IMG/VR virus record: IMGVR_UViG_2563366827_000001
From: a virus
Lineage: Duplodnaviria; Heunggongvirae; Uroviricota; Caudoviricetes
Direction: 5' to 3' (one strand)
DNA length: 16,617 bases
Within the stretch, counting starts at the first letter, position 1. Each line of letters opens with the position of its first letter. The position numbers and the translations under genes were made by a program. Positions 922 to 16,291 of this stretch are shown one piece after another. The notes below the pieces were generated by a model. That model was not told where the DNA came from, made no database searches, and saw nothing but the letters and a program-made list of their open reading frames with translations.

Positions 922-1590
922 ATGGTGAAATTAATGAAAAAAAACACAGATGATGGGGCTAAAATTTACACACCACTTACCCTAAAGCTTTATGACTGGT
1001 GGGTTTTGGGAGTATCAAATCGGCTTGCATGGGGATGTCCTACAAAGGAACACCTTCTTCCACACTTTCTGGAACATTTAGGTAACAACCATCTGGATAT
1101 TGGTGTTGGAACTGGGTTTTACCTTACTCACGTACCTGAGAGTAGTCTGATATCTTTAATGGATTTGAACGAAGCTAGCCTGAACGCGGCATCTACAAGG
1201 GCTGGGGAATCAAAAATTAAACATAAAATTAACCATGATGTTTTTGAACCTTATCCCGCGGCGTTACATGGTCAATTTGATTCCATTTCCATGTTTTACC
1301 TTCTTCACTGTCTGCCTGGAAATATATCTACAAAAAGCTGTGTAATACGCAATGCGGCGCAGACCTTAACTGACGATGGAACTCTATACGGAGCCACAAT
1401 TCTTGGCGATGGAGTTGTGCACAATAGCTTCGGTCAAAAACTGATGCGCATTTACAATCAGAAAGGCATCTTTTCAAACACAAAAGATTCCGAAGAAGGC
1501 TTAACACATATACTCTCAGAGCATTTCGAGAATGTTAAAACCAAGGTTCAAGGTACTGTAGTAATGTTTTCCGCTTCAGGGAAAAAATAG
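922..1590 (+). CDS. Putative class I SAM-dependent methyltransferase (phage moron; resembles the ybcY-type gene of DLP12-like prophages)
   Basis: 222-aa ORF, visibly AT-richer than the flanking phage genes. Contains Rossmann motif I LDIGVGTGFY, an acidic end-of-beta2 residue (ISLMDLNE) and motif II/III-like FDSISMFYLLHCLP. No DPPY/NPPY or PCQ/ENV motifs, so not an obvious DNA methyltransferase. No Shine-Dalgarno before ATG 922; a second in-frame ATG is at 934. Confidence 0.75.
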   Translation: MVKLMKKNTDDGAKIYTPLTLKLYDWWVLGVSNRLAWGCPTKEHLLPHFLEHLGNNHLDIGVGTGFYLTHVPESSLISLMDLNEASLNAASTRAGESKIKHKINHDVFEPYPAALHGQFDSISMFYLLHCLPGNISTKSCVIRNAAQTLTDDGTLYGATILGDGVVHNSFGQKLMRIYNQKGIFSNTKDSEEGLTHILSEHFENVKTKVQGTVVMFSASGKK

Positions 1591-1644: not shown

Positions 1645-2229
1645 TTACTCCCTGACAGGGTTCGTAGGCCACTCAATATCAGGTGCAGTTGATGTATCAA
1701 CACGGTTCAGCAACACCCGATACTTTTTCCAGGCTTCCAGCAATGAGGTTTCTTCCTCCGTTGCGATTTCCAGATCTACAGCATCCTGAAGTGGCGCAAT
1801 ATGCTCACTGGCTACCTGCATCAGGCTGTTTTTTGTTTCTTCCGCCTCCCGGATCCGGAACAGTTTTTCTGCTTCTGCATCTTTCACCCAGGCTGTGCCG
1901 TTCCACTTCTGAAACTCCCCTTCCGGCGATAACCAGGTAACATTTTCCGGTAACGGACCGAGTTCAGAAATAAATAACTCGTCCCCTGACGCTACGTCAT
2001 AAACCGTTTTACCCCGATGGTCTTCAACGAGATGCCACGATGCCTCATCACTGTTGAAAACAGCCACAAAGCCAGCAGGAATATCTGGTGGTGCAATATC
2101 GGTACTGTTTGCTGGCAGACCTGTATGAGGCGGAATATATGCGTCACCTTCACCAATAAATTCATTAGTTCCGGCCAGCAGATTATAAATTTTTATGGTC
2201 CGTGCTTGTTCACTCATTCTGAATGCCAT
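1645..2229 (-). CDS. tfa: Tail fiber assembly protein Tfa (lambda orf-194 type)
   Basis: 194-aa product [51 protein letters not shown]... matches lambda Tfa in length and sequence as I recall it. Its ATG overlaps the stf stop (TAATG), indicating translational coupling. Confidence 0.9.
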
Positions 2230-5189
2230 TATGCAAGCCTCACAATATAGTTAAATGCGATGTTTTTGACGGTGTTTTCCGCGTTACCAGCAGCGTTAAC
2301 GGTGATGGTGTGTCCATGTGAGCCAATCGCAACGGAGTGCGTATGAGCACCAATACCGACAGTATGTGCGTGTGCACCTGCGCTTGCAGCAGTGCCGGAC
2401 AGTGAGTGGGTATGCGCGCCAGCAGAGTTCGTATTCGCCATCGTGCCAATGCCCAGACCAACCGCCCCTTGTACCTGGTATGAGTTACTTCCGACAGCTG
2501 TAGAACCATACTGATAGGTGTCTTTAAAAGTGCTTGTATTAAACCTGCGACCATCAACGTGCGAGTGTGCTCCGGCCGAGCTTGTAGAGCCGCTCAGACT
2601 GTGCGTATGAGCCCCGGTGTTATTCGTGGATTTAGTGCCGTAATCAAACGACGATGTGGTTTTCGTCCCCAAATCCGTACTGGATGCGCTGGCGCTGTGG
2701 GTGTGCGATTTAATGCCGTCCTGTTCCTGAGACAATACGGCACGACCACTGGCGGGTTTGCCCTTAATCGTCCAGCCACGCATATCAGGGATCACGCCTG
2801 ACGGATAAGCGGCTGCAAGTTTCGGGTATGCAGATTTGTCAAAAGTCTGCCCCTGCATCAGGGCATAGCCAGACGGAACGGTATCTGATGGCCACGGGAT
2901 TGGTGCGCCAGGCGGATAAAACTGCTCTGATGGCGTATAGAGTGAATAAACTGTACCGTCCGTTAACCCTTCCGGCTTATTAGCAGAATATGCTGGTGAC
3001 GTATGAATCGTCACGCTGGCATTACTGGTATAATCCCATTGAATATTTACACCAGTCGCATAATTTCCGATTGCAACGTAAATATCGTAAGTATCACCAG
3101 ATGTATTGACCCAGGCAAAATTTGTAAACCCTGTCGATGTGCGCTGCCATAAAGCACCAGTAATCCCCTTCGGATTACCATTACCTGCACGCAAAACAAG
3201 TTCAGATATACCTGCCTGTTGAGGTGACCCCACGTTAAATCCCGCGCCACCAATCAACGTAATTGAAACAACAGAACTCGCCTGTGGCATGGTTACCGTT
3301 GCTAATTTGAACCAACCAGCACCACCGCTGAATGACATTGTTGTTGAGTTAAGCGTACCAATATCTTTCGGCGTCAGTGTTATATCCGCTGAAAGCGCCT
3401 TACCATTCACCTTACGGGCAGAAGGTACCCGACCATTCGCATTATCATTAGCTGCTTTCACTGCTTTCGGTGTCGCGGCAAGCGTTTCAGATGCGCTGTT
3501 GGTTGCACTACTGAGCTGGACAATTCCTTTTTGTGCTGTCGTAGCGTCCTGAGCGGTATATTTCCCGTTAGCAAGGTCATAGGCTGCCTTTACCGACTTT
3601 GGCGTTGCCGCCAGCATTTCAGATGTGCTGTTGGTCGCGCTGCTGAGCTGAACGATCCCTTTCTGTGCTGTCGTTGCATCCTGTGCGGTGTATTTCCCGT
3701 TAGCCAGGTCATACGCGGCCTTAACTGCTTTTGGCGTTGCCGCCAGTGACTCGGAAGTGCTGTTAGTCGCACTGCTGAGCTGTACTATCCCCTTTTTCGT
3801 CGTGCTCGCATCCTCAAGCGCCACGGCGGATGCAATATCCTCTGCCCGTTTAGCTGCTGTCTCGGCGCGCGTTGCCGCGGATTCCGCCGTACTTTTGCTC
3901 TGAGCTGCCGCCGTCGCACTGCCAGCTGCCTCTGTCGCCTTCGTGGATGCCGTCGTGGCGCTGCTCTTCGCTGCTGACGCCTGTCTGGTCGCCTCATCTT
4001 TTGAAGCAGACGCCGATGATGCCGATGACGCCGCCGAACTGGCTGACGATGCGGCAGCCGTTTTTGAGGATTCTGCGCTGGTTTCCGACGCTTTCGCGTT
4101 CGTTTCGGATGTCTTCGCTGCGGAAGCAGAACTCGCTGCTGCGCTGGCCTGTTCAGTGGCTTCGCCAGCCTTCGTTGTGGCTGTTGAAGCGGATGATGCG
4201 GCGCTTTCTGCCGATTTTCCGGCGGCGGTGGCACTGGCTGAGGCCTGCCCGGCACTTGTTGACGCGGCACTGGCAGACGACGCAGCCGCTGTTTTTGAGC
4301 CTGCCGCAGCTGAGGCGCTCTGTCCCGCTGCCGTCTCAGAAGACTTAGCGTTCGTCTCGGACGTTTTTGCCGCCTTCGCGGAATTTCCTGCCGCCGTTGC
4401 CGAGGAAGCGGCACTACTGGCGCTTGATGATGCGTTCGTTTCTGATGATTTTGCCGCTTCTTTTGAAGCCGACGCATCCCGGGCTGAGGTGGCAGCTTCT
4501 GACGCTTTCGTGGTCGCGGTGGATGCAGAAGTGGCTGCTGATTGTTGTGACGCTGCCGCATTCGTTTCTGACGTTTTCGCCGCAGCGGCACTGGTGGCCG
4601 CCGCGCTTTTTGAGGACTCTGCAGCGGCAGCACTTTTTTCCGCTTCAGTGGCCTTTGTTGATGCCGTTCCTGCGCTGGAAGACGCTGACTGAGCCGACGA
4701 CGCGGCCTGTCCGGCTGACGTGCTGGCTGCGCGTGCTGAGCCTGCAGCATCAGTCGCATGGGTTGCCGCCTCACGGGCTGATGTGCTGGCATCGCTGGCT
4801 GACTTCTTCGCGGCTGCCGTGTTCTGTGCCACCGCGGACGCGTTACGCGCCACCTCTTCCACCATCAGTTCAAAACGGCGCAGTGCCTCAGGACGGGCAT
4901 CATCCTCCGTCATGGCACCGAGAAAATCATTCAGCGTACCGGGTCGGGAATCTTCATACACGGTGATGGTCCCGGCATGTGACGGCGGGAAGCCTTCCAC
5001 CAACAGAATAACGCTGTACTGACCGTACTCAACGTCCATGCTGTAACGCCCGGCTTCATCCGGATTTTCTGAGGCCAGCGTGTTCACCACCACCGTGGTA
5101 CTGTTACGTTTTGCTTTCAGCTGGATTGTGCAGTTCTGTACCGGTTTTCCTGTGCCGTCTTTCAGTACACCTGAAATCTTTACTGCCAT
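2229..5189 (-). CDS. stf: Side tail fiber protein Stf (long lambda-Stf-like variant, about 986 aa)
   Basis: N-terminus [26 protein letters not shown]... matches the lambda Stf N-terminus. Followed by a long Ala/Ser/Thr-rich low-complexity region, three tandem repeats of about 44 aa ([42 protein letters not shown]), and a C-terminal tip with GAHTHSLSG / [31 protein letters not shown] HxH repeats ending [11 protein letters not shown]. The track ORF begins at GTG 5195; I place the start at ATG 5187-5189. Confidence 0.9.
3430..3800 (-). repeat. Three tandem repeats of about 130 bp inside stf (coding for the 44-aa tail-fiber repeat)
   Basis: Near-identical DNA blocks such as GTATTTCCCGTTAGC.AGGTCATA.GC.GCCTT.ACTG.TTTTGGCGTTGCCGCCAG recur three times, corresponding to the [15 protein letters not shown]... 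protein repeats. In-frame and coding, not a CRISPR array. Confidence 0.7.
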
Positions 5190-5200
5190 ATTCACCCCAC

Positions 5201-5253: not shown

Positions 5254-5853
5254 TCAGAATTTATAACCGACACCCACGATGAAACCGTCAGTGCGCCAGT
5301 CGCCACTGCCGGAGCCTTCATAAGCAATATCAATGGCCACGGATTCGGTCGGGTTAAACTGCACGCCAGCTCCCCACGCCAGAGACGTGTTGCTGTGGCG
5401 ACCGTCATCACTTCCGGTCAGCACGTCGTGCGTTTTCCCCTTGTTGTCAGTTACGCGGAGATAATCCCCGGAGAAAGTCGACACACGGCTGTAAGACACA
5501 CCCGCCATCGCATACGCGCTGAACCATTCATTCACGCGCACAGACGGCCCCGCCATCACGCTGAACCAGCGGTTACGCACGGAATCTTCATGCCAGCGGA
5601 TATCGCTGTAACGGGTAAGCTGGCGATTCTTGTCTCCTGCATAGCTGAATGACGTCACCAGCCCCAGTGTGTCCGTAAACTCATAACGGTATTTCACGTT
5701 AATCCCGTTCAGATCATCGCTGCCGGGAACGTTCGTCGAGGCATGAAGATACCCCGCGCTCAGCGTGGACTGATGTTCAGATGCCCATGCAGACGCACCG
5801 GATACGGCCAGACAAATAGCTGCGGACAAAATGGCTGCATAAAGTTTACGCAT
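5254..5853 (-). CDS. lom: Lom outer-membrane protein (Ail/OmpX/PagC family moron)
   Basis: 199-aa product with an N-terminal signal peptide ([24 protein letters not shown]) and a beta-barrel-like alternating pattern ending ...[10 protein letters not shown] (C-terminal aromatic residue). Sits between J and stf as in lambda, flanked by terminators. Confidence 0.9.
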
Positions 5854-5875
5854 AATTACCTCTCGCTTTTCTGCA

Positions 5876-5901
5876 ATAAAAAAGGCGTCATTCCTGACGC
5901 C
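5876..5901 (-). terminator. Rho-independent terminator downstream of J
   Basis: On the minus strand, GGCGTCA-GGAA-TGACGCC hairpin followed by TTTTTTATT, 22 nt after the J stop. Confidence 0.6.
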
Positions 5902-5923: not shown

Positions 5924-8900
5924 TCAACGAATACTGATACCGGAAGCCGCTTTTTTGGTCACAATCACCGTACAGTCGGTGATATTCCCTGCCCCCTGAT
6001 TGCCTTTCTGGAAAATCTTAAACTCCAGAGTGACGCTACCACCACCACTAGGCATATCAATAACTGCACTGTAACTACCGGGAATGGCCCCTTTAGTTTC
6101 TCTGGATGCGATTAATACACCGTTTTTGCGAACTTCAAAACCATAACCCGTGTATCTTGTACCTCCCGGGTTATTACCACTTCCCGGATCGCTATACGCT
6201 ATTCCGTTAAAGATAATGGGCGGAATAATGATTTGACGGTCAAAGTTATGATCATCGCTGATGGTGACTGTAACCGTCCCGTTTGGTGTTTCCGTATTAC
6301 CCCACGTACCAGCCTGTTTCGGGAATGATTTGGATACAGCTTTAACGAAGTCACCTCTGACCTGAGTCGCCTCCAGCATGCCCTTAATCGTACAGTTTTC
6401 ATTTACCGTGACATTGTTGAGCGTCCCGGCGTTCGCATTCACTCTGCCACTGATATCCGCATTTTTAGCGGTCAGCTTTCCGTCTGATGTCAGGGAAAAT
6501 ACCGGAGGACTGCCACCGCTGGTAATGGTGGGGGCTGTCAGGCGCTTCAGGAACACGTCGTTCATGAATATCTGGTTGCCCTGCGCCACAAACATCGGCG
6601 TTTCATTCCCGTTTGCCGGGTCAATAAACGCGATACGGTTAGCGGCAACCAGAAACTGGCTCAGCTTGCCTTCCTCCGTGTCCTCCATGCTGAGGCCAAT
6701 ACCCGCGACATAATGTTTGCCGTCTTTGGTCTGCTCAATTTTGACGCCCCACATGGCATTCCATTTATCGTTAGCGTCCTTCCACTCTTTCGAAAACTCA
6801 TCCAGTCTGCTGGCGTTATCCTCCGTCAAATCAACTTTTTCCAGCAGCTCTTTACCGAGATGGGATTCGGTTATCTTGCCTTTGAAAAAATCCAGGTAAC
6901 CTTCCGCATCATCGCTCGCCCGACCGACGCCCTCCACGAATGCCGATTTGCCAACGGTGTTCACACTGCGGATATAAAAGTAATAATCATGGCCCGGTTT
7001 GATATTGATACTGGCGGCTATCCAGTACAGCGCCGTACCAAGATAGCGGGCTGTGGTTTCAACCTGCCTGATATCGGTAATCCGCTTTTCCGAGAACCAG
7101 AACTCAAACTGTACCGTCGGGTCATAAACGGCAAGATGCGGCGTGGCGGTTATCTGAAAATAGCCCGGCGTCAGCTCAATCCTCGACGGTGCTGCCGGTG
7201 CGGCAATCCGGAACGATACCGACGCCGGATCGCCCTGCTGCCCCCACGCATTTACCGCCCGGACTGTCAGCCTGTAGTTCCCCAGCGCCAGTTGCGTGAA
7301 GCGGTATGTGGTTTCCGTCGTCCGGGCCGTGCTGACCAGCCGCTCACTGCCGTCATCCGCTGTTACGGTCAGACGGAGCAGGAAGCTCACGCCCTTCACC
7401 ACCTTCGGCGTGTCCCAGCGCGCCAGCACCTGATATTCCCCGCTGTCTGCGGTGACTTCGGCGGTCAGGTGCTGCACCGCTGGCGGCGTGACACCATTCA
7501 CCGTGCCGCTCTGGTCGCCGTCAAAGTGCGCCCCGTTATCCACGATGGCTTCTTTTTCCGGTACATGCTGCACGGCAGTGATGGCATACGTGCCGTCATC
7601 GTTATCACGGATACTCACACAGCGGAACAGGCGCTGACGCAACGTCGGCAACTTCAGCCCCCACACACTGTATTCTGCAACGCCGTCAGGAACCCGGTTC
7701 ACTTTCACCTTAAGTCCGTCGGTGACGGACTGAACCTCCACGCTGACCGGATTACCACTTCCGTCAACCAGGCTTATCAGCGTGGTACCGGAGGATGGCA
7801 GCGTGATTTCACGGTCGAGCGTCAGCGTCCGGGTCTGGCTGTTCACCGCCAGCACGCGACCACCGGTGCTGATACCGGCATAGTCATCATCGAAGATTTC
7901 AATAACATCGCCCGGTACATGGCGAAGCCCTTCAGCACCCACGCTGAAATCCACGGTCTGCGTCTCCAGCAGTTCCGTTTTAATCAGCCACAGCCCGGCG
8001 CGGTGTGCCTGCCCCCGGCTGGTACAGCCAAAGGCATCCATCTTCGTGACATTACGACCGTAACGGGCAATGGCCTGCGTATCTTCAACAAGCTCTGTCG
8101 CCGTCTCCCAGCCGTTGTTCGGGTCAATCCAGTTCACCTCAACGGCATTATGGCGGTCCTTCAGGGCGCTGAAGCTGTAGCGGAACGGCGCGCCATCATC
8201 CGGCATCACCACATTACTGCGGTTATAGGTCCACACCTTATCTGATGGTCGGTCCTGCACGAACGTCAGCGTCTGCCCGTTCCATACCGGCATACAGCGC
8301 ATCGCCGAGCAGAAATCACTGAGCACATCCCACGCCTTGCGCTGTGTGGTCAGGTATGCATTACAGGTGATGCGCGGCTCCGTGCCGCCAAAGCCGTCCG
8401 GTACTGACTGGTCGCAGTACTGGCCGATGACATACAGCGCCCATTTGTCCACATCCGCCGCACCAAGACGTTTCCCCATGCCGTAGCGTGGATGGGTCAG
8501 CATATCCCACAGACACCAGGCCATGTTGTTGCTGTATGCCGGTTTAAACGTTCCGTCCCAGATACCGCTGTATTGCCGCGTCTGCGGGTTATAATTCGAC
8601 GGCACCTGCAGAATACGCCCGCGCAGATGATAATTACGGCTCACCTGCTGGCTGCCGAACTGCTCCGAGTCCACCTGCACGCCGACCAGTGCCGTGTTCG
8701 GGTAGCACTGTTTCACATCGATAATTTCGGTGTATGACGACCAGAGCGTTTTGTTCTGCAGCTGGTCTGTGGTGCTGTCCGGCGTCATCCTGCGCATCCG
8801 GATATTAAACGGGCGCGGCGGCAGGTTATCCACCACCACCGAGGCCAGATACTGCGAGGTGGTTTTGCCCTTAATGGTGATGTCTTTTTCCGTCACCCAG

Positions 8901-9337
8901 CCACCGTTACGTTGTATCTGAACCAGCAGACGGACTTCCGACGGATTCCTGTCACCCTTTGAGGTGGTTTCCACCAGTGCCTGTACACCGAAGGTAAAGC
9001 GCAGACGGTCGATGTTTGCAGACGTAATGGTGCGGGTGATCGGCGTGTCATATTTCACTTCCGTACCCAGCACCGTCTCGGAGCCGGAGGATTCAAACCC
9101 CTCCGGCGGTGTCTGCTCCTGCTCACCGGCACGGAACACCACCGTGATACCGGAGATGTTGGTATTCCCCTCAGTGTCCAGCACCGGCGTACTGTTCAGC
9201 AGCACGCTTTTTAATCCATCCACCGGACCTTCAACCGGCCCTTCGCTGATGGCATCGATCACACTCAGCAACTGCGTGGACTTCAGGTTGTCCTTCGCTT
9301 CGCGCGGGGTATGCCCCTTACTGCTTCCTTTACCCAT
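5924..9337 (-). CDS. J: Tail tip / host specificity protein J (central tail fiber), 1137 aa
   Basis: N-terminus [34 protein letters not shown]... and most of the length match lambda J as I recall it. The last roughly 130 aa (...[27 protein letters not shown]...[11 protein letters not shown]) look different from my recollection of the lambda J receptor-binding C-terminus. Confidence 0.95.
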
Positions 9338-9397: not shown

Positions 9398-10069
9398 TCA
9401 GCGACCAATCACCACAACCTGACCACCGTCCCCTTCGTCTGCCGTGCTGATCTCCTGAGAAACCACCCGTGACCCCACGCGCATTTCACCATACAGAACA
9501 GGCAGAACATTGCCCTGGGCAACCATGTTATCCAGTGAGGAGAAATAGGTGTTCTGCTTACCGTTATCCGTTGTCTGTGTACGGGGAGTTCTGGCTTTCG
9601 GTGCCAGCATCTGCGCCACACCACCGAGCACCATACTGGCACCGAGAGAAAACAGGATGCCGGTCATACCACCGGCCCCAATGGCTGCCCCCCATGCTGC
9701 AAGGGTGGCTCCGGCGGTAAAGAATGATCCGGCAATGGCGGCAGCCCCCAGGACAATCTGGAATACGCCACCTGACTTGGCCCCGGCGACTCTGGGAACA
9801 ATATGAATCACAGCGCCATCAGGCAGAGTCTCATGTAACTGCGCCGTTAACCCGGACGTGCTGACGTCCCGCCCGGCAATCCGTACCTGATACCAGCCGT
9901 CGCTCAGTTTCTGACGAAACGCCGGGAGCTGTGTGGCCAGTGCCCGGATGGCTTCAGCCCCCGTTTTCACACGAAGGTCGATGCGACGACCAAATCGTTG
10001 TAAATCCCCGTAAAGGCAGATGCGCGCCATGCCCGGTGACGCCAGAGGGAGTGTGTGCGTCGCTGCCAT
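9398..10069 (-). CDS. I: Tail tip assembly protein I (223 aa)
   Basis: 223-aa product MAATHTLPLASPGMARICLYGDLQRFGRRIDLRVKTG... with a hydrophobic glycine-rich segment, same length and position as lambda I. The 5' end overlaps the K 3' end by about 100 nt in a different frame, as in lambda. Confidence 0.9.
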   Translation of the reverse strand: MAATHTLPLASPGMARICLYGDLQRFGRRIDLRVKTGAEAIRALATQLPAFRQKLSDGWYQVRIAGRDVSTSGLTAQLHETLPDGAVIHIVPRVAGAKSGGVFQIVLGAAAIAGSFFTAGATLAAWGAAIGAGGMTGILFSLGASMVLGGVAQMLAPKARTPRTQTTDNGKQNTYFSSLDNMVAQGNVLPVLYGEMRVGSRVVSQEISTADEGDGGQVVVIGR

Positions 10070-10710
10070 TTGTCGGTGTACCTCTCTCGTTTGCTCAGTT
10101 GTTCAGGAATATGGTGCAGCAGCTCGCCGTCGCCGCAGTAAATTGCGGCGTGATTCGGCACCGATGAACCAAAACAGCACAGCAGCACATCGCCCGGCTG
10201 TGCCGCTGACAACGGCACCTGATACAGCCCCGTCGCCTCCAGATTATCCAGATAGAGATTCTGGCCGTTACGCCACCAGTCATCCTCACGATGAAAGTCC
10301 GGCATCTCAATCCCCGCCAGATGATAAGCATCCCGGAACAGTGTGTAACAGTCCGTCACACCGTGCTCAAAGCGCCGCCCGGTGAGATGCGGCACACAGC
10401 GGAACTTATGAATCGTCCCCCGGCAGACCAGCCACCACGGCAAATCACTCTGCACCTGCAGCCGCCGGTCGGCCTCACTCAGCCAGGGCAGACCACCGGG
10501 GTGGCTGTGGACCAGCGCCACAATCTCACCCTGCATTTCTGCCTGCAGCCAGTCTTCCGGCGACATACGGAAATACGCCTCCGGCTCACCGGAGATATTC
10601 ACGCAGGGGAAATATCTTTCCCCCTCCGGCGTGCTTACCACAAAGCCGCACGACTCCGCTGGCGCACATCGCCGGGCGTGCGCCAGAATCGCTGATTCTG
10701 TCTGTGTCAT
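9967..10710 (-). CDS. K: Tail tip assembly protein K (JAB/MPN plus NlpC/P60 domains)
   Basis: Product MTQTESAILAHARRCAPAESCGFVV... contains the JAMM metal-binding motif HSHPGG...SEAD followed by an NlpC/P60-like region with a catalytic Cys (VTDCYTLF). Position between L and I as in lambda. Confidence 0.9.
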   Translation of the reverse strand: MTQTESAILAHARRCAPAESCGFVVSTPEGERYFPCVNISGEPEAYFRMSPEDWLQAEMQGEIVALVHSHPGGLPWLSEADRRLQVQSDLPWWLVCRGTIHKFRCVPHLTGRRFEHGVTDCYTLFRDAYHLAGIEMPDFHREDDWWRNGQNLYLDNLEATGLYQVPLSAAQPGDVLLCCFGSSVPNHAAIYCGDGELLHHIPEQLSKRERYTDKWQRRTHSLWRHRAWRASAFTGIYNDLVVASTFV

Positions 10711-15147: not shown

Positions 15148-15888
15148 TTAACTGTCGGTGACAGTGATTTCTGCAACCGCAGCAAGTTCACCATTACCGG
15201 ATACAACCGGAATGTTGACCTTACCTGCAGCAACGCCTTTCACGGTGATGGTCATACCACTGACCGACACGGTGGCTTTTGTTTTATCCGCTGACACCGC
15301 ACGGAAGCTCTTGTCAGTTGCGCCCTCCGGCTGGAATGCCACGGTCAGCGTGGTGCTCTGCCCTTTCACCACCGAGGAGCTGGCAGGCGTCACAGTCATA
15401 CCGGTTGCCGCCGTCACCGTACTGCGATCTTCTGCCATTGACGGACGGCCCACATTGGTGACCTTCACCGTACGGGTGATCACTTCCTTCGCCGTCACCG
15501 CCTTACCGATACTGCTGACCCAGCCACGGAACACATCGACCGTGCCGTTCGGGAAGCGGATTTTATAGGCACGGGTATCACCTTCATTAAACCACGCCAG
15601 CAGCGCCTGCTGCCCCTGCTCTCCGGGCATCCACGCCAGCGTGAAGCTGGTATCTCCGGCGGATTTCTGCCCCTGCCCGGTCGCGGTCCAGTCCGCATCT
15701 TCATCATCGAGATAACTGTCGTCATAGGACTCAGCGGTCAGTTCGCCGGGCGTCAGGTCTTTAACTTTAGCCAGACGCGACCAGTCAACGTCTGAAAGCG
15801 GGTTCGCATAAGGGTCGCTGCTCCCGTTATAAACCCACAGGGTGGTCCCGGCACCTTTCACCGGTATTGCTGGATTTGGTACAGGCAT
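15148..15888 (-). CDS. V: Major tail protein V (246 aa)
   Basis: Product [57 protein letters not shown]... matches lambda V, including a C-terminal Ig-like region. I place the start at ATG 15886-15888, which has a GAGGA Shine-Dalgarno, rather than the upstream in-frame start used by the ORF track (15918). Confidence 0.9.
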
Positions 15889-15895
15889 ATCGTCC

Positions 15896-16291
15896 TCACA
15901 TTTCATAGGTAATGACATAAGTCAGATCGGCAGAACTCCACAGGCCCGCATCATCGTCGCGCCGGTAGTCATAGCCACTGGCCACCATACTGGTGAGCAA
16001 ATCTGACAGTGCCGGGATATCGCTCATCACCGGATAAATCCGGGACTCCATCCACGAATCCAGCTCTGAATCCGGTACCTGAGCAGGCAGGAAAACTTCG
16101 ATATGCAGCTCCGCCTGCCAGGTATCGCTGTCCAGCTCTTCGCCCGTGTATTCAGCGCCGGTGAGATAAACGGCAACTGCCGGAAAATCCGCCTCATCAA
16201 AAACAGCGGGGCGACCATCAAAAAACGTCGCCCCGGTGTCATGCTTCTCCAGTGCATCCAGTACGGCTGCACGGAGTTCAGTATGTTTCAT
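15896..16291 (-). CDS. U: Tail terminator protein U (131 aa)
   Basis: 131-aa product [54 protein letters not shown]..., same length as lambda U. ATGA overlap with the Z stop. Confidence 0.95.

Follow-up and report, generated by a model that had tools for sequence, protein, structure and literature searches.

Gene J of the lambdoid E. coli prophage analysed here encodes a near-lambda body joined at approximately codon 981 to a receptor-binding domain of the phage 434 class, and its receptor is very probably OmpC. The protein is a natural "h434" allele, that is, the classical 434-type J in a common natural variant, and not a new tip. The combination of a lambda-like body with a 434-type tip is ordinary, because it has long been known and is found in about four of every ten complete E. 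coli genomes.

Gene J and its break against lambda J

The window (the whole 16,617 bp stretch of DNA that was analysed) covers the tail region of the prophage on the minus strand, with the genes U, V, G, T, H, M, L, K, I, J, lom, stf and tfa; next come a gene for a small methyltransferase, remnants of tail-fibre-assembly genes and the end of an IS3-family element. J sits in the lambda-like tail order V-G-T-H-M-L-K-I-J-lom-stf-tfa, in which the genes are 94–100% identical to their lambda or 434 homologues. All of the tail genes from U to tfa are intact open reading frames of lambda-like length, with G, T, H, M, L and I having exactly the length of their lambda counterparts. Head, lysis, replication and immunity genes fall outside the window.

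The J product matches the NCBIfam model NF049904 (lambda_TipJ) over residues 1–1137, with a score of 2276.3 bits against a cutoff of 1950, and a Pfam search recovered the complete domain series in the order known from lambda J. A reading of J as a frameshifted gene or pseudogene was rejected, as the open reading frame is intact and its product is identical to the J of an isolated phage. A terminator-like hairpin lies directly past the J stop codon, at the same site where a terminator is annotated after J in phage 434; a hairpin scan placed this structure on the plus strand. The features of the locus are as follows, with window coordinates for DNA and residue numbers for the Pfam domains of J (body domain names after Ge & Wang 2024, PMC11101478).

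5924..9337, minus strand: gene J (central tail fibre, tip attachment protein), 1137 aa plus stop, intact open reading frame
6398..9337, minus strand: lambda-like J body, codons 1–980 (hub, FNIII/Ig domains, alpha-helical shaft and most of the central straight fibre), amino acid identity 97.0% to lambda and 98.5% to 434
6338..6457, minus strand: junction zone, codons 961–1000, where DNA identity to lambda falls from 90% to 87%, 65% and 38% per 60-nt bin while identity to 434 stays at 83–100%
5927..6397, minus strand: divergent 434-type specificity block, codons 981–1137, 38.2% identical to lambda and 94.9% to 434
5930..6337, minus strand: Ig-like C-terminal receptor-binding domain, aa 1001–1136 (Pfam PF12421 Ig_GpJ_C, AlphaFold2 model and Foldseek)
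5874..5901, minus strand: terminator-like hairpin (stem 5884–5901, then a run of six T), read from the sequence
aa 86–207: PF24801, first in the series (hub/FNIII-A)
aa 330–498: PF13550, second in the series (Phage-tail_3)
aa 610–714 and 716–818: PF24421 and PF24489, two Ig/FNIII domains
aa 846–972: PF09327, tail-tip fibre
aa 1001–1136: PF12421, C-terminal receptor-binding domain

Comparison with lambda J (NC_001416 15505–18903; NP_040600.1) by BLASTP and global alignment gave an overall identity of 89% that was very unevenly distributed along the protein. Residues 1–980 were 97.0% identical (951/980), whereas residues 981–1137 were only 38.2% identical (60/157). At the DNA level, nucleotides 1–2850 of J were 96.7% identical to lambda and 97.3% identical to 434. 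In 60-nt bins the identity to lambda remained at or above 87% through codon 980, dropped to 65% over codons 981–1000 and ranged from 38% to 63% beyond, and a blastn match to lambda of 98.0% extended from window position 15843 down to 6368 and ended there. A shift from 97% to 38% identity inside one open reading frame is far beyond chance, and its pattern is that expected of a typical mosaic junction.

A sequence-only reading of this DNA had described the J body as lambda-like and the C-terminal residues, about 130 of them, as unlike lambda. The first description holds, and so does the divergence: the alignment with lambda J that it had proposed as a check rules out near-identity of the C-terminus, at 36–38% (36.2% over residues 997–1137, the span given by its coordinates). 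The size does not hold, as the stretch it quoted amounts to approximately 159 residues, and its placement at 5924–6350 is too short, covering 141 codons and the stop although the block begins at about codon 981 (window position ~6397), some 47 nt beyond 6350. The 20-residue motif it had quoted begins at residue 979 (window position 6403).

Membership of the phage 434 tip class

The window J and the J of phage 434 (UMO75286.1) are both 1137 aa long and align without gaps and with 23 substitutions (98.0% identity), the tip being 93% identical over residues 964–1137 and 94.9% identical over residues 981–1137. The window protein is 100% identical to the J of the isolated temperate phage 2B8 (YP_009909853.1, genus Alegriavirus). 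The 427 nt of DNA at 5924–6350 are 100% identical in phages Evi, 2B8, PhiR26_1 and PhiR29_1 and 96–97% identical in cdtI, Ayreon and many Stx1a- and Stx2c-converting phages; lambda was absent from the DNA matches to this segment among phage records.

A tblastn search of 50,697 phage records with the tip found 74 records that were at least 90% identical, with 434 at 93.1%, and none between 60% and 90% identity. The best matches below this gap did not exceed 47.5% and included phi330 (46.6%), phage 21 (44%), VT1-Sakai (42.7%) and lambda (40.2%). The identities were bimodal in the phage records and in the protein database alike. As no phage record falls at 60–90% identity and the best match shown below the gap lies at 47.5%, the 434-type tip appears to form a discrete class. 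The tip is at most 50% identical to those of lambda, 21, phi330 and A8, the last three of which belong to a separate tip class whose loop lengths differ from those of the window tip and to each of which the window tip is 48–50% identical (the A8 sequence being taken from the PDB alignment). Within that class the A8 and phi330 tips are 99% identical to one another and the phage 21 tip is 82% identical to both.

The likeness to 434 continues downstream of J in Lom (97% identical) and in the first 115 residues of Stf (99% identical), but the remainder of the window side fibre and the Tfa chaperone do not resemble their 434 counterparts. Phage 2B8 differs from the window in the same region: its side fibre gene is short (1314 nt) and 434-like, with type III effector genes downstream, whereas the window side fibre is 988 aa long.

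Of 5,426 complete E. coli genomes, 2,111 carried DNA at least 90% identical to the tip, nearly always within a gene annotated as J, and homologues of the 434-class tip were also found in E. albertii and Shigella. Few tips in E. coli are commoner, and the finding is of minor importance in itself; that lambdoid phages swap the specificity region of J was already clear from the lambda-434 hybrids, and a systematic analysis has been published (Maddamsetti et al. 2018, PMC6646904). That the C-terminus is this classical and very common h434 allele had been missed in the sequence-only reading.

Fold and predicted loops of the receptor-binding domain

The match of the C-terminal domain to PF12421 has an E-value of 2.2e-25 and a score of 89.7 bits against a gathering score of 26.2, and covers model positions 1–134 of 135. 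Divergent as it is, the C-terminus is clearly homologous to lambda and can be aligned over its whole length to the receptor-binding domain of lambda gpJ in PDB 8xcj/8xck (phmmer E 2.5e-30), while the strongest phmmer match among solved gpJ tips was the A8 chimera (9wca/9wcb; E 6.5e-39). An AlphaFold2 model of the tip monomer, built with an alignment of 28 homologous sequences, had a mean pLDDT of 82 and a pTM of 0.71; a single-sequence model of residues 955–1137 (mean pLDDT 50) was discarded and kept out of the fold search. The top four PDB entries returned by Foldseek for the tip model were 9wcb, 9wca, 8xck and 8xcj (E ~1e-15, TM 0.67–0.69), with the next match at E 2.8e-4, so that the structure prediction suggested in the sequence-only reading placed the domain nearest to the solved gpJ tips, those of lambda with LamB and of the A8 chimera with OmpC. 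On sequence and model together the tip is a member of the lambda J receptor-binding family, with a predicted Ig-like beta-sandwich. Replacement by a non-homologous tip, as in the GpJ tips of Drexlerviridae (10.64898/2026.04.02.716166), was rejected on the end-to-end alignment with the lambda domain and the common fold.

The window J and lambda J have the same domain order and the same Ig-like C-terminal fold in addition to a 97% identical body, and hold in common the scaffold motifs FP, DD..FDRQ, DMP.G.G and KK...GIS; lambda J, however, binds LamB. The A8 gpJ chimera also has this fold and is the best match among solved structures by both sequence and structure (Foldseek E 9.5e-16). PDB 9wca represents A8 in the closed state and 9wcb its complex with the OmpC porin of E. 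coli EDL933, so a gpJ-family tip with this fold can engage OmpC.

Relative to lambda, the tip has two additional residues at lambda 1011/1012, six after 1051 and one at 1077, and lacks four around 1103–1110. These indels coincide with, or lie close to, the four indel hot spots (lambda 1012, 1048–49, 1077 and 1107) that were shown to define J lineages by Maddamsetti et al. 2018 (PMC6646904), who also concluded that residues 960–1132 are a specificity module exchanged on its own. In the model the indels map between the main strands, to short hairpins or to segments without strand structure. Four variable loops were assigned by setting the secondary structure of the model and the indel positions against the descriptions in PMC11101478 and PMC6646904.

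6281..6328, minus strand: predicted variable loop 1, aa 1004–1019, two-residue insertion at lambda 1011/1012 (non-strand segment or short hairpin in the model, with indel; 1012 hot spot, PMC6646904)
6149..6202, minus strand: predicted variable loop 2, aa 1046–1063, six-residue insertion after lambda 1051 (near the lambda 1048–1049 hot spot, PMC6646904)
6080..6097, minus strand: predicted variable loop 3, aa 1081–1086, one-residue insertion at lambda 1077 (lambda 1077–1078 hot spot, PMC6646904)
5990..6004, minus strand: predicted variable loop 4, aa 1112–1116, four residues shorter than lambda around 1103–1110 (model and indel)

Predicted loop 1 would correspond to loop L1 of the lambda structure. 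From 434 to the window, 12 substitutions are found in residues 965–1115 (S965R, S970A, I978V, Q980E, A1004S, K1008Q, V1009A, D1019N, D1049S, V1108I, H1110Q and R1115G). Eight of the 12 (1004, 1008, 1009, 1019, 1049, 1108, 1110 and 1115) are located in the receptor-binding domain, in or beside predicted loops 1, 2 and 4, with four of them (1004, 1008, 1009 and 1019) in predicted loop 1. The same loop positions are recurrently polymorphic among 45 cluster representatives of the class, in which the window residues are common states; G1115, for example, is the majority state (30 of 39 cluster representatives).

Receptor of the window tip

The sequence-only reading had proposed a receptor other than the LamB used by lambda, and membership of the 434 class together with the reported use of OmpC by 434 supports that proposal. 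According to two papers (PMC3509688, PMC11101478), OmpC is the receptor of phage 434, and lambda given the 434 fibre gene (h434) binds it in place of LamB. Because the tip domain is approximately 94–95% identical to that of phage 434, OmpC is most probably the porin recognised by the window J. The 434/OmpC statements in PMC3509688 and PMC11101478 cite Fuerst & Bingham 1978 and Hantke 1978, and the assignment of the OmpC determinant to J rests on this classical genetics as reported second-hand. In the lambda h434 imm21 hybrid (OM418627, from PMC9119081) we found the informative sites to be of lambda type as far as J codon ~705 and of 434 type from codon ~711 rightward, and the 434 region that transfers host range therefore includes the tip block. 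The 434 segment of this hybrid also includes lom, stf and tfa, so that the hybrid, taken by itself, leaves both the J tip and the side fibre as candidates for the OmpC determinant. PhiR26_1, in which the tip DNA is identical, is recorded with E. coli K-12 MG1655 as its host, in a record that names the host but not the conditions of growth. A literature search for published receptors of phages with the same or nearly the same tip (2B8, Evi, PhiR26_1, mEp460, mEp332, Ayreon and IdasGreatGrand) found none.

Two characterised tips outside the 434 class, A8 and phi330, are OmpC-dependent (preprint 10.1101/2022.09.30.509847; PMC12502783), with the requirement of phi330 established by Keio deletion and complementation (PMC12502783). 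The window tip shares only some 50% identity with the solved OmpC-binding tip of A8, so the contacts of A8 with OmpC are not simply transferable. If the assignment of the 434 class to OmpC holds, at least two distinct classes of gpJ tip would use this porin.

In lambda, the trimeric tip puts four loops into LamB, upon which the domains spread and a movement up the fibre opens the tail (PMC11101478). The same opening mechanism with OmpC as the partner is a natural inference by analogy. The near-lambda body of the window J would build the tail tip and the central fibre, at the end of which three copies of the Ig-like domain would be arranged as in the solved gpJ structures and would offer four variable loops to a trimeric outer-membrane porin; these four predicted loops would be the contact surface. 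Binding of the porin would push the three domains apart, and the movement would travel up the fibre and open the tail tip for ejection of the DNA. In practical terms the prophage could be annotated as OmpC-type and not as LamB-type, an annotation that bears on host-range prediction, on superinfection and on the spread of the related Stx1a- and Stx2c-converting phages, whose tips are ~97% identical. As a natural and probably OmpC-type tip that lies outside the A8 class, it could also serve to retarget lambda-based delivery particles.

The substitutions that separate the window tip from that of 434 could alter the range of OmpC variants recognised or, conceivably, the porin itself; this common natural allele might then accept only certain OmpC variants, or use OmpF or another general porin. 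The position of eight of the 12 differences in or beside predicted loops is consistent with such a shift, as is the alignment of G1115 (R in 434) with lambda D1107: residue 1107 is one of two required for the laboratory switch of lambda to OmpF, for which four substitutions, including those at 1012 and 1107, suffice (PMC6646904). Two engineered gpJ chimeras, A8 and 1A2, also differ in the OmpC variant that they accept, from MG1655 or EDL933 (preprint 10.1101/2022.09.30.509847), and the recurrent polymorphism within the class concerns the same positions. We nevertheless consider a change of specificity improbable, given that the window carries alleles common in the class at these positions, with G1115 in the majority, that identity to 434 across the domain is still ~94%, and that the recorded K-12 MG1655 host of a phage with identical tip DNA fits a K-12 surface protein, as for 434. 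If the specificity were shifted, positions 1004, 1008, 1009, 1019, 1049, 1108, 1110 and 1115 would amount to a natural code that fine-tunes E. coli prophages, Stx-converting ones included, to particular porin alleles.

Continued binding of LamB, with the divergence from lambda due to drift or antigenic variation and no switch of receptor, is very unlikely compared with the assignment to OmpC. The tip does have its fold and conserved scaffold residues in common with lambda, and tips unrelated in sequence can have the same receptor, as exemplified by LamB-specific GpJ tips of Drexlerviridae with little to no homology to lambda (2026 preprint 10.64898/2026.04.02.716166). Against this, OmpC instead of LamB is the reported receptor of 434, the closest of the characterised relatives (PMC3509688, PMC11101478), and all four predicted variable loops differ from those of lambda in both length and sequence. 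Least probable of the readings considered is that J is a relic in a defective prophage and that its receptor specificity has no present function. The window does start in an IS3-family element beside the remnants of tail-fibre-assembly genes, and E. coli genomes very often contain remnants of lambdoid prophages; however, every tail gene from U to tfa is intact and of lambda-like length, and the J protein is the same, residue for residue, as that of the isolated phage 2B8.

Extent of the 434-like block and the side tail fibre

Downstream of J on the minus strand lie an outer-membrane protein gene, the side tail fibre gene and tfa:

5254-5853, minus strand: lom, Ail/Lom outer-membrane protein, downstream of J
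2229-5195, minus strand: stf, side tail fibre, 988 aa
1645-2229, minus strand: tfa, product 94% identical to lambda Tfa

The Lom encoded in the window shares 97% identity with that of phage 434 but only 51% with that of lambda, so the 434-like block begins near J codon 981, spans lom and reaches into the start of stf. Over its first ~115 residues the window Stf is 99% identical to 434 Stf, and over residues 760-988 it shares 71% identity with the C-terminal portion of lambda Stf (orf-314); like J, Stf is a mosaic. Since the Stf of Ur-lambda binds OmpC (PMC12617516), this prophage may engage a single porin with both its central tip and its side fibres.

The crossover behind the classical h434 hybrid was located within J codons ~705-711, using the sequenced lambda/434 hybrid lambda h434 imm21 (OM418627, locus 8620-8638). 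To the right of this crossover all the DNA is of 434 type, comprising the C-terminal third of J together with lom, stf, tfa and the type III effector genes, so the laboratory 'h434' marker takes in more than the J tip.

Related J tips and a probable HepS trigger peptide

The J tip of EHEC phage phi330 is 99% identical to that of the engineered 'A8' gpJ (PDB 9wca), while the phage 21 tip is 82% identical to it. The 'A8' tip has been used in OmpC-targeted DNA delivery, and its structure has been solved bound to OmpC. Another segment of J may bear on host defence:

6539-6634: J residues 902-933 including F924, identical to lambda J

The lambda version of this 32-residue peptide triggers HepS, the Gifsy-1 abortive-infection nuclease (PMC13043305), and given its identity in the window HepS would probably sense this phage as well.

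K and V reading frames and the prophage end

For two further tail genes the longest ORF exceeds the product annotated in lambda:

9967-10710: K, longest ORF 247 aa (lambda annotation 199 aa)
15148-15918: V, longest ORF 256 aa (lambda annotation 246 aa)

Both ORFs are in agreement with the phage 434 record, which aligns with each of them from end to end and has a K gene that is likewise 247 aa.

The prophage end carries the following features:

1 to ~390: end portion of an IS3-family element, by sequence match
~394-900: tail-fibre-assembly gene remnants, by sequence match
922-1590, plus strand: class I SAM-dependent methyltransferase, 222 aa, assigned by Pfam Methyltransf_12 and related families and by the RefSeq annotation of a homologue

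The exact junction at 1-900 was found in no complete E. coli genome over at least 80% of the 900 nt. In a related genome, ompT adjoins the prophage end. The methyltransferase gene, situated at the prophage end on the strand opposite to the tail genes, looks like a moron gene.
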